This document shows positions 863-45,426 of a stretch of 64,000 nucleotides of DNA, piece by piece (within the stretch, counting starts at the first letter, position 1; each line of letters starts with the position of its first letter). The position numbers and the translations under genes are program-made. Where the stretch lies: assembly GCA_020137815.1 (NCBI GenBank), contig CM035353.1, positions 7,812,001-7,876,000 of the forward strand. Reading direction: 5' to 3'. The DNA is from Hormiphora californensis. Lineage: Eukaryota; Animalia; Ctenophora. The notes beneath the pieces were generated by a model. It searched no databases. It was not told the origin of the DNA and saw only the letters and a program-made list of their open reading frames with translations.

Positions 863-2548
863 ACAGCGGAAGGGCTAGGGTTCAATGTGATGGGAGGAAA
901 GGAGCAAGCATCGCCAATCTACATTTCCAGAATAATCCCTGGTGGAGCGGCCGCTAAGTAAGTCATTTGGGGGACCCCTCCTTTACACTGTTATCATGTG
1001 TTGTAACACTGTTATCTTTACAGGGATGGTAGTCTGAGAAGGGGTGACCAGCTGTTATCATGTGTTGTAACACTGTTATCTTTACAGGGATGGTAGTCTG
1101 AGAAGGGGTGACCAGCTGTTATCATTTGTTGTAACACTGTTATCTTTACAGGGATGGTAGTCTGAGAAGGGGTGACCAGCTGTTATCATGTGTTGTAACA
1201 GTTAACACTGTTATCTTTACAGGGATGGTAGTCTGAGAAGGGGTGACCAGCTGTTATCATTTGTTGTAACACTGTTATCTTTACAGGGATGGTAGTCTGA
1301 GAAGGGGTGACCAGCTGTTATCATTTGTTGTAACACTGTTATCTTTACAGGGATGGTAGTCTGAGAAGGGGTGACCAGCTGTTATCATGTGTTGTAACAG
1401 TTAACACTGTTATCTTTACAGGGATGGTAGTCTGAGAAGGGGTGACCAGCTGTTATCATTTGTTGTAACACTGTTATCTTTACAGGGATGGTAGTCTGAG
1501 AAGGGGTGACCAGCTGTTATCATGTGTTGTAACACTGTTATCTTTACAGGGATGGTAGTCTGAGAAGGGGTGACCAGCTGTTATCATGTGTTGTAACACT
1601 GTTATCTTTACAGGGATGGTAGTCTGAGAAGGGGTGACCAGCTGTTATCATGTGTTGTAACACTGTTATCTTTACAGGGATGGTAGTCTGAGAAGGGGTG
1701 ACCAGCTGTTATCATGTGTTGTAACACTGTTATCTTTACAGGGATGGTAGTCTGAGAAGGGGTGACCAGCTGTTATCATGTGTTGTAACACTGTTATCTT
1801 TACAGGGATGGTAGTCTGAGAAGGGGTGACCAGCTGTTATCATGTGTTGTAACACTGTTATCTTTACAGGGATGGTAGTCTGAGAAGGGGTGACCAGCTG
1901 TTATCATGTGTTGTAACACTGTTATCTTTACAGGGATGGTAGTCTGAGAAGGGGTGACCATCTGTTATCACATGTGTTGTAACACTGTTATCTTTACAGG
2001 GATGGTAGTCTGAGAAGGGGTGACCAGCTGTTATCATGTGTTGTAACACTGTTATCTTTACAGGGATGGTAGTCTGAGAAGGGGTGACCATCTGTTATCA
2101 CATGTGTTGTAACACTGTTATCTTTACAGGGATGGTAGTCTGAGAAGGGGTGACCAGCTGTTATCAGTTAACGGGCAGAGTGTAGAGAAATCATCTCACG
2201 AAACTGCTGTTGATCTACTGAAGAATGCACAAGGTAATTGCAGATTGGATTGAATTTATAATTCAGGTCACTTTTCTTTTCCTTACTTTTCCCTATCAGC
2301 TAGTAGTTAGCTATTTATCAGTCACATCGTAATTGCAGATACACGCACACAGACCTACTAAATAGTCCCCACATGTACAATTGTTATCTTGTTACACACA
2401 CCCTGTTAGTTCTTGTTAGTTATTAACAATGTGTGTATTAACAGGTAAGGTACGACTAGTTGTTAAGTATACACCCAAGATCCTGGAGGAGATGGAGGCA
2501 AGATTTGAGAGGCAACGAGCATCTAGAAGAGGCCGGGCTGTTAACTAG
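863..2548 (+). CDS. LIN7: LIN-7/Veli PDZ protein, last three exons (863-957, 2130-2233, 2445-2548); 5' part lies upstream of the window
   Basis: Spliced translation [100 protein letters not shown] matches the LIN7 PDZ domain and C-terminus. GT-AG introns with consistent phases. Confidence 0.93.
988..2166 (+). repeat. 64-bp tandem array of an intron 3' end plus exon start (18 splice acceptors)
   Basis: Unit CTGTTATCATGTGTTGTAACACTGTTATCTTTACAG|GGATGGTAGTCTGAGAAGGGGTGACCAG. Acceptor AGs end at 1023, 1087, 1151 ... 2063, 2129. Confidence 0.95.
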
Positions 2549-3141
2549 ATGGGTGTTTTATTAATGATCAGATAAGAAAAGACTGTTTTGAAAAGAAATG
2601 TGCGCTATATAGCGTTCATTATTTCTGTTTATATATCCAAATATATCATCATTTATTGTTTGTGTGTGGAGGGGTTGAAATCCAGAGAGAGAAGACTAAA
2701 ATCTCATATTCTTTACCCTAAATGTCATCCTGTTTGTTTGCAAGTTACAAAGTGGAACCTCGTTCTTGTACAGTTTATTTTCTGTGTATTTCCGTTTTTG
2801 AAATTTCCACTTTTAGGCTTTGGTATGGCACCAGAGCCCAGATAGCAGACCCCAAGGCCAAACCCCAGACATGACCGAAGGCCATGATCAAATTGTCACA
2901 TACAGATTCATGCCTGTGCGGCGCGCCCCTGACTGCGCATAATTCAGGGGCGCGCAGCTATTGAAAGTACACTCTTTCAGCATTTACCTCGACCTTGGTA
3001 CACTAACCGTGGGAATTTTCTGCAAACTTCCCCCAACTTGATTCCCCCACTTCCAAGTTCCAACTCTCAGTACAAATCTCCTTTCTTCTAAACCCCATCT
3101 CTAAACCCCATATATCTTGTAGTAGTAGTAAGAGACTAGCC

Positions 3142-41588: not shown

Positions 41589-44500
41589 ATGATTGTTACC
41601 AGTGCTGGCAAGAGCAGGTCTCCAGGGCGATCCCCAATGAAGAGTGAGATAGTGTTCGACCCGAATCTAAATGAGTCTGATCACTACGAGGGGACAAAGA
41701 GAAAACAACACACCCCAACCACACCCGGCCCTCAACCATCAGGTAGAAACAACACACCCCAACCACACCCGGCCCTCAACCATTAGGTAGAAACAACACA
41801 CCCCAACCACACCCGGCCCTCAACCATCAGGTAGAAACAACACACCCCAACCACACCCGGCCCTCAACCATCAGGTAGAAACAACACACCCCAACCACAC
41901 CCGGCCCTCAACCATCAGGTAGAAACAACACACTCGGCCCTCAACCATTAGGTAGAAACAACACACCCCAACCACACCCGGCCCTCAACCATCAGGTAGA
42001 AACAACACACCCCAACCACACCCGGCCCTCAACCATCAGGTAGGAACAACACACTCGGCCCTCAACCATCAGGTAGAAACAACACACCCCAACCACACCC
42101 GGCCCTCAACCATCAGGTAGAAACAACACACCCCAACCACACCCGGCCCTCAACCATCAGGTAGAAACAACACACCCCAACCACACCCGGCCCTCAACCA
42201 TCAGGTAGAAACAACACACCCCAACCACACCCGGCCCTCAACCATCAGGTAGAAACAACACACCCCAACCACACCCGGCCCTCAACCATCAGGTAGAAAC
42301 AACACACCCCAACCACACCCGGCCCTCAACCATCAGGTAGAAAACAACACACCCCAACCACACCCGGCCCTCAACCATCAGGTAGAAACAACACACCCCA
42401 ACCACACCCGGCCCTCAACTATCAGGTAGAAACAACACACTCGGCCCTCAACCATTAGGTAGAAACAACACACCCCAACCACACCCGGCCCTCAACCAGC
42501 AGGTAGAAACAACACACTCGGCCCTCAACCATCAGGTAGAAACAACACACCCCAACCACACCCGGCCCTCAACCATCAGGTAGAAACAACACACCCCAAC
42601 CACACCCGGCCCTCAACCATCAGGTAGAAACAACACACCCCAACCACACCCGGCCCTCAACCATCAGGTAGAAACAACACACCCCAACCACACCCGGCCC
42701 TCAACCATCAGGTAGAAACAACACACCCCAACCACACCCGGCCCTCAACCATCAGGTAGAAACAACACACCCCAACCACACCCGGCCCTCAACCATCAGG
42801 TAGAAACAACACACCCCAACCACACCCGGCCCTCAACCATCAGGTAGAAACAACACACTCGGCCCTCAACCATCAGGTAGAAACAACACACCCCAACCAC
42901 ACCCGGCCCTCAACCATCAGGTAGAAACAACACACCCCAACAACTGCACCCGACCCTCAACCATCAGGTAGAAACAACACACCCCAACCACACCCGGCCC
43001 TCAACCATCAGGTAGAAATAACACACCCCAACCACACCCGGCCCTCAACCATCAGGTAGAAACAACACACCCCAACAACTGCACCCGACCCTCAACCATC
43101 AGGTAGAAACAACACACCCCAACCACACCCGGCCCTCAACCATCAGGTAGAAACAACACATCCCAACCACACCCGGCCCTCAACCATCAGGTAGAAACAA
43201 CACACTCGGCCCTCAACCATCAGGTAGAAACAACACACCCCAACAACTGCACCCGACCCTCAACCATCAGGTAGAAACAACACACCCCAACCACACCCGG
43301 CCCTCAACCATCAGGTAGAAACAACACACCCGGCCCTCAACCATCAGGTAGAAACAACACACCCCAACCACACCCGGCCCTCAACCATCAGGTAGAAACA
43401 ACACAGTCACCCCAACCACACCCGGCCCTCAACCATCAGGTAGAAACAACACATCCCAACCACACCCGGCCCTCAACCATCAGGTAGAAACAACACACCC
43501 GGCCCTCAACCATCAGGTAGAAACAACACACCCCAACCACACCCGGCCCTCAACCATCAGGTAGAAACAACACACCCCAACCACACCCGGCCCTCAACCA
43601 TCAGGTAGAAACAACACACTCCAACCACACCCGGCCCTCAACCATCAGGTAGAAACAACACACTCGGCCCTCAACCATTCAGGTAGAAACAACACACCCC
43701 AACCACACCCGGCCCTCAACCATCAGGTAGAAACAACACACCCCAACCACACCCGGCCCTCAACCATCAGGTAGGAACAACACACTCGGCCCTCAACCAT
43801 CAGGTAGAAACAACACACCCCAACCACACCCGGCCCTCAACCATCAGGTAGAAACAACACACCCCAACCACACCCGGCCCTCAACCATCAGGTAGAAACA
43901 ACACACCCCAACCACACCCGGCCCTCAACCATCAGGTAGAAACAACACACCCCAACCACACCCGGCCCTCAACCATCAGGTAGAAACAACACACCCCAAC
44001 CACACCCGGCCCTCAACCATCAGGTAGAAACAACACACCCCAACCACACCCGGCCCTCAACCATCAGGTAGAAACAACACACCCCAACCACACCCGGCCC
44101 TCAACTATCAGGTAGAAACAACACACTCGGCCCTCAACCATTAGGTAGAAACAACACACCCCAACCACACCCGGCCCTCAACCAGCAGGTAGAAACAACA
44201 CCCGGCCCTCAACCGTCAGGTAGAAACAACACACCCCAACCACACCCGGCCCTCAACCATCAGGTAGAAACAACACACCCCAACCACACCCGGCCCTCAA
44301 CCATCAGGTAGAAACAACACACCCCAACCACACCCGGCCCTCAACCATCAGGTAGAAACAACACAGTACACACCCCAACCACACCCGGCCCTCAACCATT
44401 AGGTAGAAACAACACACCCCAACCACACCCGGCCCTCAACCATCAGGTAGAAACAACACACCCCAACCACACCCGGCCCTCAACCATCAGGTAGAAACAA

Positions 44501-45426
44501 CACACCCCAACCACACCCGGCCCTCAACCATCAGGTAGAAACAACACACCCCAACCACACTCGGCCCTCAACCATCAGGTAGAAACAACACACCCCAACC
44601 ACACCCGGCCCTCAACCATCAGGTAGAAACAACACACCCCAACCACACCCGGCCCTCAACCATCAGGTAGAAACAACACACCCCAACCACACCCGGCCCT
44701 CAACCATCAGGTAGAAACAACACACCCCAACCACACTCGGCCCTCAACCATCAGGTAGAAACAACACACCCCAACCACACCCGGCCCTCAACCATCAGGT
44801 AGAAACAACACACCCCAATCACACCCGGCCCTCAACCATCAGGTAGAAACAACAAACAGTCCACGATGACGAAGTAATCAAATCTCTACCATCCTCATTC
44901 ATGTTATTTCCTATTTACCCCTGGCCCCTACAATTATCTCCCGATACAAATCGTAAACACATGACGCTCCACTACCCATTATATTTATATGACGTCACCA
45001 CTCTGCAGGATTAACACGGGCCACTACGTGGACAGATGATGTTGAGGAAAACTACAGATTCCAGACCGCTGGTTACCGAGATCTCAAAGAGTACTGTCAT
45101 GTTCAAGGTAATGTTTACCACATCAATACCTTGATCTGTGTACTTTAAACCATCCTATCAGATGAACACAATATTCTGTCATTGCCTGTCAGTATGATAC
45201 CTGACCTCTCCCTCCCTCCTCCCGAATATCTCTAACTATTCCAACTTCCCGTAACACCTCTCAATATTGCAGGTGTATCAGATGTTGAAGTGAGCAGGTG
45301 GCCTCACAACGGCTATGTCAAGATGCTTCTCTCTAGGAAGGGTGGATTTATCTACTTCAACAAGGATAGAGAATGCATGGATAAAGATTTACACAAATGT
45401 AAAATGTTCAATTACAACACACAGTG
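41589..45426 (+). CDS. MEIG1: Meiosis-expressed gene 1 homolog; exons 41589-41742, 45009-45107, 45273-45426
   Basis: [22 protein letters not shown]...[11 protein letters not shown]...[23 protein letters not shown] matches the MEIG1 family. Phases are consistent (1 and 1). Confidence 0.88.
41704..44854 (+). repeat. 44-bp tandem array of exon end plus splice donor (~70-75 copies, with shorter ~31-bp variants)
   Basis: AACAACACACCCCAACCACACCCGGCCCTCAACCATCAG|GTAGA. First GT at 41743, last at 44843. Confidence 0.95.

Follow-up and report, generated by a model that had tools for sequence, protein, structure and literature searches.

Tandemly repeated splice junctions in introns of the ctenophore Hormiphora californensis are probably "mirage" minisatellites

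A 64,000-nt stretch of the genome of the ctenophore Hormiphora californensis (assembly GCA_020137815.1, contig CM035353.1, positions 7,812,001–7,876,000, forward strand; hereafter the window, with coordinates counted from its first base) contains eight introns, in the four genes LIN7, SID-1, KTI12 and MEIG1, each with its own splice junction repeated head to tail in 2 to 74 copies. Each of the eight arrays spans a splice junction of its own gene, four on the acceptor and four on the donor side. We refer to the copy nearest the exon body as the real site and to the remaining copies as decoys. The arrays are, in our judgement, probably "mirage" minisatellites, in which junction copies were seeded by slippage, grew by unequal exchange or conversion, and are tolerated through pairing of the nearest splice sites across the exon.

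Exon models were built by hand from the sequence, and arrays were located with Tandem Repeats Finder (TRF) and by anchor-based decomposition. Array lengths and copy numbers are read from one assembled sequence, and all null tests are confined to the window. The eight arrays had been described in a sequence-only reading of this DNA, and all of them were recovered where that reading placed them, with the copy numbers and unit lengths it gave. The same loci came up with a detector that ignores junctions, which gave no match in three block-shuffled controls, so the arrays are not due to chance; as the detector cut the KTI12 and PPA arrays short, the ends of these two were set from TRF and the sequence. 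Units measure 31–66 nt, and the longest stretch common to any two of them is 11 nt. No unit 16-mer recurs elsewhere in the window, which agrees with the earlier statement that this is not one mobile family; a mobile element or dispersed satellite family was rejected on the same ground, within the window.

All eight arrays lie on the plus strand. The LIN7 acceptor array (988–2166) follows an exon at 863–957 and has 18 acceptors in 64-nt units, the real exon starting at 2130; its spacings are 64 nt (13), 71 nt (2) and 66 nt (2), and the host intron is 66 nt long once the array is collapsed. Five arrays lie in a single SID-1-family gene (16826–25602, plus strand). SID38 (17232–17307) is a 38-nt acceptor duplicate with a decoy exon start at 17263 and the real one at 17301. 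SID66 (21081–23533) has 37 acceptors and a real exon start at 23491; its 66-nt unit consists of 34 intron and 32 exon nt, and all 36 spacings are exactly 66 nt. SID43 (23718–23817) has two acceptors, 43 nt apart, with the real exon start at 23799. On the donor side, SID56 (23944–24235) has five donors in 56-nt units, the real one after 23970, and SID31 (24913–25348) has 14 donors in 31-nt units (one of 32) composed of 26 exon and 5 intron nt, the real one after 24938. The KTI12 donor duplicate, KTI47 (39887–39978), has two donors in 47/44-nt copies, the real one after 39897; its decoy would leave an intron of less than 60 nt. The MEIG1 donor array (41703–44854) is the largest, with 74 donors in units mostly of 44 nt (31–51) and the real donor after 41742. 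The first monomer holds the real donor in SID56, SID31, KTI47 and MEIG1; in MEIG1 the first donor is taken as real solely because start codons lie in the upstream exon.

A borderline ninth mirage, absent from the sequence-only reading, lies on the minus strand before the last modelled exon of a PPA gene (26817–26914); its 38-nt unit repeats the pyrimidine tract, the AG and three exon bases. From its translation we take the host to be an inorganic-pyrophosphatase-like gene. Eight further genic arrays, likewise not previously described, span no junction, and six of these lie within 12 nt of one. The array in the COMMD gene (37265–37887, plus strand; 21/42-nt unit, branch-point-like and pyrimidine-tract sequence without AG) ends 5 nt before an acceptor and carries 27 telomere-like hexamers and, on the opposite strand, 18 motifs resembling G-quadruplexes (G4). 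A second PPA array (27220–27332, minus strand; 11/22 nt, branch-point-like motif) lies 12 nt from an acceptor, a G-rich, purely intronic 32-nt array in SID-1 (SID32; 18687–19055, plus strand) begins 11 nt into its intron, and a purely intronic array in KTI12 (39607–39721, plus strand; 9/18 nt) lies just past a donor. A 200-nt TC-rich microsatellite (27872–28076) makes up the pyrimidine tract preceding a minus-strand PPA acceptor, and a 27-nt duplication (7498–7545, plus strand) lies 7 nt past the likely donor of a secreted-looking gene (6844–7490), outside the enrichment counts. Within the modelled genes, no array was found to lie entirely in an exon. The local density amounts to 8–9 mirages in about 49 introns and to five in the 16 introns of the SID-1 gene; none of the 11 introns of PSMC2 carries an array (5/16 versus 0/11, P = 0.06).

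Most of the junctions at issue are supported by protein homology. The two LIN7 exons that flank the array correspond to successive portions of the LIN-7B PDZ domain (2dkr residues 14–43 and 47–79), and the KTI12 exons match PF08433 positions 129–166 and 175–214. The SID-1 model (17 exons, 711 amino acids (aa), no internal stop, start not located) shows 51% identity to its relative P0008 in a gap-free 319-aa alignment across the junctions of the 66-, 43-, 56- and 31-nt arrays; the SID38 junction is supported by the open frame alone. P0007, the top match of the homologue search, was dropped as an unrelated repeat protein. The MEIG1 Pfam domain begins downstream of the array; the upstream exon (41589–41741) has no Pfam match, and a homologue search with the last MEIG1 exon gave no candidate. 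Directly upstream of the 16-intron SID-1 gene stands a second SID-1-family gene (14287–16476, plus strand) with two modelled introns, about 50% identical to its relatives (48.6% to a Bolinopsis microptera protein) and possibly retroposed or depleted of introns. A 1112-nt SID-1 intron (19250–20361) contains an antisense two-exon gene (19363–19900, minus strand) whose small, cysteine-rich product has hydrophobic ends and is presumably secreted or GPI-anchored; the second exon has no Pfam match. Where the last KTI12 exons are expected (40148–41580), there is an Arg/Glu-rich 148-aa open frame (40830–41276, minus strand), also without Pfam match.

Used singly, each of the 146 decoys leads to an early stop, as expected from the earlier claim that only the copy nearest the exon keeps the reading frame; for the first MEIG1 donor that claim depends on the start codons only. 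Restoration of the frame by the exon-nearest copy is, however, a consequence of any junction-spanning duplication and no evidence of design. With score matrices derived from 34 array-free introns of the window, decoys score the same as the real site in LIN7 (17/17), SID56 (4/4), SID31 (13/13) and most of MEIG1 (66/73, with five lower and two higher), above it in 27 of the 36 SID66 copies and in SID38, and slightly below it in SID43 and KTI12. If the genes work, position and not strength must therefore select the site. Internal re-splicing has little to act on: the best donor within an acceptor-array unit scores 4.4 (real donors 3.8–12.6), so that none is strong, and productive micro-exons or re-splicing within these units were rejected for this reason; SID56, KTI47 and SID31 units have no strong acceptor (scores ≤1.1). 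As acceptors, MEIG1 units reach a score of 11.9, where real acceptors range from 2.3 to 17.4, and each of them has acceptor and donor dinucleotides abutting (AGGT), a motif also found in SID56 and KTI12 units and in four of the 36 SID66 decoys, and not in LIN7, SID38, SID43 or SID31. Judging from these motifs, the ratcheting proposed in the sequence-only reading would be possible mainly in MEIG1 and at the four SID66 copies.

We infer that splice-site choice in these arrays is centred on the exon. First-come scanning explains donor arrays and not acceptor arrays, and for the latter the splicing puzzle raised by the sequence-only reading is a fair one. In human long-intron contexts, sites closest across the exon are favoured, weakly so for acceptors (available excerpts of PMC9225289), and in the ctenophore Mnemiopsis frame-preserving exon skipping is described (accessible part of PMC6142364); together with the 1112-nt SID-1 intron and its nested gene, this skipping makes exon-centred recognition plausible in ctenophores.

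The short introns of this region go far to explain why arrays coincide with junctions. The 48 modelled introns have a median length of 149.5 nt, or 126 nt (58–1112) with arrays collapsed, somewhat above the "mostly ~100 nt" of the sequence-only reading, and for the 39 internal exons the median is 116 nt. As a null, one unit of each array was placed at random in collapsed introns plus their junctions, wholly exonic positions being excluded. The full list of 17 genic arrays comprises 13 found first and four weak TRF arrays, and counts of 8–9 are without and with the borderline PPA case. On this list, 8–9 of 17 span a junction against 5.4–6.5 expected (P = 0.05–0.30); conditional on each array's own intron, the count is 8–9 of 16 against 7.3 (P = 0.25–0.45). 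In LIN7, where the intron is 66 nt long, a 64-nt duplication spans a junction with a probability of 0.98. The junction-focused duplication process that had been proposed is thus not needed at the level of the full list (P = 0.05–0.45), and short-intron geometry accounts for most of the pattern, with perhaps a modest pull of arrays toward intron ends in addition.

Under the mirage explanation, seeding would occur by slipped-strand duplication, often at microhomology, and a 31–66-nt duplication in a gene with introns of about 126 nt and exons of about 116 nt would often hit a junction by geometry alone. Wholly exonic duplications would be purged by selection, whereas those across a junction would preserve one intact junction, with the surplus copies ending up in the intron. 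Two copies would suffice to seed a minisatellite, which could then grow by unequal exchange and conversion. Use of the first donor or last acceptor would follow from exon-centred pairing, aided for donors by 5′–3′ scanning, with any leakage lost to nonsense-mediated decay, and the arrays would require no function.

Slippage between spaced direct repeats is a recognized origin of minisatellites. At the array ends, microhomology measures 9 nt in LIN7, 11 in SID66, 8 in MEIG1 and 7 in SID56; of the five arrays with three or more copies, four thus have 7–11 nt. SID43 has 13/14 nt. The earlier claim that the larger arrays are bounded by microhomology is borne out in LIN7, SID66 and SID56, and in MEIG1 needs correcting from 9 to 8 nt (the exon side has an extra A). 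Junctions without an array have a best available match of 5.6 nt on average, and only 6 of 70 reach 8 nt or more, so that the 8–11 nt at array ends point to homology-driven seeding. As for turnover, SID66 variants recur and reassort along the array, neighbours being no more alike than random copies (P = 0.45), as expected of conversion; neighbour similarity in SID31 is likewise at the random level (P = 0.36), and length variants recur in LIN7 and MEIG1. The real copy equals the decoy majority in LIN7, SID66, SID31 and MEIG1, and differs from all four decoys in SID56. G4- or telomere-like motifs were rejected as a common cause, as they occur in only three of eight arrays checked (SID32, the 38-nt PPA array and COMMD).

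In the 32 exon-derived bases of the SID66 decoys, which cover a conserved YH motif, eight of nine distinct variants are synonymous against 33% expected (P = 0.0009), as are 18 of 19 variant occurrences; counted by site, five of six variable sites are third positions (P = 0.011), and with the microhomology included the figure is 8/12 (P = 0.01). The bias was spotted by eye among eight arrays examined and is thus post hoc, and the site-level result fails correction. Nor do all arrays share it: synonymous variants make up 2/2 in SID31 (1 of 13 copies skipped), 2/2 in SID43, 2/5 in SID56 (its other three differences, 0/3), 0/1 in LIN7 and 1/7 in MEIG1 (an unconserved segment; 15 of 73 copies, with indels, skipped), giving pooled counts of 14/19 without MEIG1 (P = 9 × 10⁻⁵) and 15/26 with it. 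In both SID43 and SID56, the two synonymous differences are fixed, separating the real exon from its decoys, and the changes may have happened on the exon side. The SID66 bias hints at exchange of sequence between decoys and the real exon. Such exchange, by conversion or unequal crossing, might be so frequent that intronic copies come under protein-coding selection or record past synonymous alleles of the exon; we put this forward tentatively and consider it rather doubtful. A mutation hotspot in the CT-rich stretch is a simple alternative. If exchange does take place, decoy–exon traffic, combined with as many as 36 acceptors that are passed over at about 130 nt from a donor, would mean strictly exon-centred splicing in a short-intron ctenophore, and mirages would offer a read-out of second-order selection on non-coding repeats; should the bias hold genome-wide, coding selection would reach intronic repeats by way of conversion.

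Several observations weigh against neutral slippage with exon-centred tolerance, starting with the SID66 bias itself, which does not fit strict neutrality. At the 14-copy SID31 array and at KTI12, microhomology is only 1 nt, which corrects the earlier account. Other observations would suit a mutational process coupled to transcription or to splicing, through pausing, R-loops or breakage at the ends of introns, that preferentially duplicates splice signals, possibly seeding itself through decayed intronic exon fragments and still leaving the arrays neutral. On the list of 13 arrays, 8–9 span a junction against 4.6–5.5 expected (P = 0.011–0.12), and among arrays with units of at least 30 nt, 8–9 of 10 do so against 4.0–4.8 (P = 0.002–0.04). 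With arrays up to 12 nt from a junction counted alongside those spanning one, the figure is 15/17 against 7.6–9.1 (P = 0.0002–0.002), or 14/16 against 10.0 under the own-intron null (P = 0.017). No array with units of at least 30 nt occurs in the 16.4 kb outside modelled genes within 800–45500, and array-free exons match their own intron over at least 7 nt slightly more often than swapped introns (17/68 versus 12.5%, P = 0.019). However, both the 12-nt and the 30-nt cut-offs were chosen afterwards, in a window singled out for its richness in arrays, and strict overlap is non-significant on the full list. An array family with 63-nt units lies in non-genic DNA at 48.6–60.2 kb, and the scarcity of G4-like motifs in the arrays also argues against such a process, which we regard as unlikely.

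Further difficulties concern splicing. Three arrays have host introns of 103–160 nt, and in the large acceptor arrays there are decoys at a distance of about 130 nt from the donor upstream. Where human introns are shorter than about 250 nt, the splice sites nearest each other across the intron prevail (available excerpts of PMC9225289), a rule that would here favour the decoys, as these are the nearest; and the human genes 6-16 and CBS also use two decoys (accessible part of PMC1557585). Partly used decoys might accordingly act as a dimmer, with stop-containing RNA degraded and copy number tuning expression, or MEIG1 might be spliced stepwise through its AGGT units. The early stops from all decoys, the strength of most of them and the acceptor scores of MEIG1 units would fit such a role. 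Early stops are, however, expected from any intronic insert, the units scored other than those of MEIG1 lack a second strong site, and the hosts are unrelated genes without a common unit sequence, PSMC2 being free of arrays; moreover, amphioxus mirages yielded no aberrant mRNA according to the accessible parts of PMC3087553 and PMC3902484. A regulatory or stepwise role thus appears quite improbable. The arrays could also mark hypomorphic or dying alleles in which splicing fails and intact frames reflect recent damage: SID-1 combines five mirages with an adjacent, nearly intronless paralogue, and the 3′ end of KTI12 (PF08433 positions 215–271, the last exons) was not found in searches of the window. 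Yet the SID-1 frame is stop-free over all its exons and gap-free against its relative, though its arrays are old enough for many variants, and real-exon/decoy differences across the SID-1 arrays are mostly synonymous (14/18), so that decay of these genes is very improbable. Finally, tandem arrays are often misassembled, an amphioxus case included (PMC3087553, in the excerpts available), but the uniform SID66 spacing, with recurrent, recombining point variants biased to third positions, and the recurrent length variants of LIN7 and MEIG1 make an assembly or amplification artefact barely credible; copy number could still be off.

If these loci are mirages, a repeat class that is known but has received little study now includes a ctenophore, where its local density is high. 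With identical decoy acceptors in a short-intron genome, they offer a naturally occurring test of whether splice sites are defined across exons or across introns in an animal of an early-branching lineage. In practice, such arrays can also mislead gene annotation and the assembly of short reads.

The surroundings have features of their own. Amid intron-rich neighbours lie adjacent intronless genes for a GST (34021–34779, plus strand; best match the EukProt record 'sb/3468658/', 91%) and an MBOAT protein (35093–36376, plus strand), as well as an intronless membrane-protein-like open reading frame (ORF) at 31543–32334 without a Pfam match above the cut-off. Nested inverted repeats at 7556–11154 (arms of 709 nt at 99% and 254 nt at 100% identity, a 138-nt perfect hairpin and a 130-nt pair) are likely to be stacked non-autonomous DNA transposons inside a gene's intron. 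A tRNA-Ser gene (46172–46256) precedes a histone cluster (46750–61480) with inverted H2A/H2B pairs, H3, H4 and H1, named by reading the sequence. The 63-nt array family lies between the histone genes (48635, 49361–50126 and 59744–60216), and an 807-aa intronless ORF between H3 and H4 (55121–57544, minus strand; no Pfam match) is possibly a transposon gene.

Among known systems, recursive (ratchet) splice sites are known from very long introns. The AGGT of every MEIG1 unit and of the four SID66 decoys resembles them; the host introns here measure 0.1–3.3 kb, and the motif is absent from half of the arrays. The Rogers model of intron gain by tandem duplication of AGGT (as outlined in PMC3087553) likewise involves duplicated splice signals, and MEIG1, SID56 and KTI12 units would qualify. 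Here, however, existing introns have been lengthened, and no new intron or exon has arisen, the SID-1 model being gap-free against P0008 with the outer sites. Every host intron keeps its own unique other end, and intron gain was rejected accordingly.

Variable repeats at human exon–intron boundaries have been described (PMC2812944, in part available). Human variable-number tandem repeats (VNTRs) span donors in F7 IVS7 (37 nt), CBS IVS13, 6-16, LMNB2 and PDGF and repeat an identical donor 5–25 times. Oriented scanning selects the most upstream donor alone in F7, and LMNB2 and PDGF use the real donor only (available excerpts of PMC1557585). The first unit of F7-type VNTRs spans the exon–intron boundary, as in the 31- and 56-nt SID-1 arrays and the 44-nt MEIG1 array. 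Our arrays differ in including four acceptor-side cases, which first-come scanning would not explain, and in their far higher density; for the human VNTRs allele series and site use are known, whereas the ctenophore arrays are known from sequence alone.

The closest parallel is the amphioxus mirages, boundary-spanning tandem repeats of donor and acceptor type named in Adh3 and also found in the globin genes BflGb6 and BflGb9, troponin C and PGBD5, with apparently undisturbed splicing and unstable array length (accessible parts of PMC3087553 and PMC3902484). Together with the human donor VNTRs, they are of the same kind as the arrays described here, so that a new class, as the sequence-only reading had it, is not supported. 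A literature search, covering main texts and few subscription journals, turned up neither a mirage from a ctenophore nor an account of synonymous bias among decoys of this kind, and the accessible text of the Hormiphora genome paper gives 13% tandem repeats without mention of mirage-type ones (PMC8527503); the present arrays are thus probably the first ctenophore case. At the level of sequence they have boundary-spanning units at both boundary types, gene-specific unit sequences and intact AG or GT in the decoys, at several loci, as the amphioxus mirages do (Adh3 units of 10–72 nt). They differ in that amphioxus is a chordate, that BflGb6 has 3–6 copies and the arrays here up to 74, and that the host introns here are very short. 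Boundary units are excluded from homogenization in BflGb6 according to the same excerpts, whereas in LIN7 and SID66 the real copy matches the majority of its decoys.

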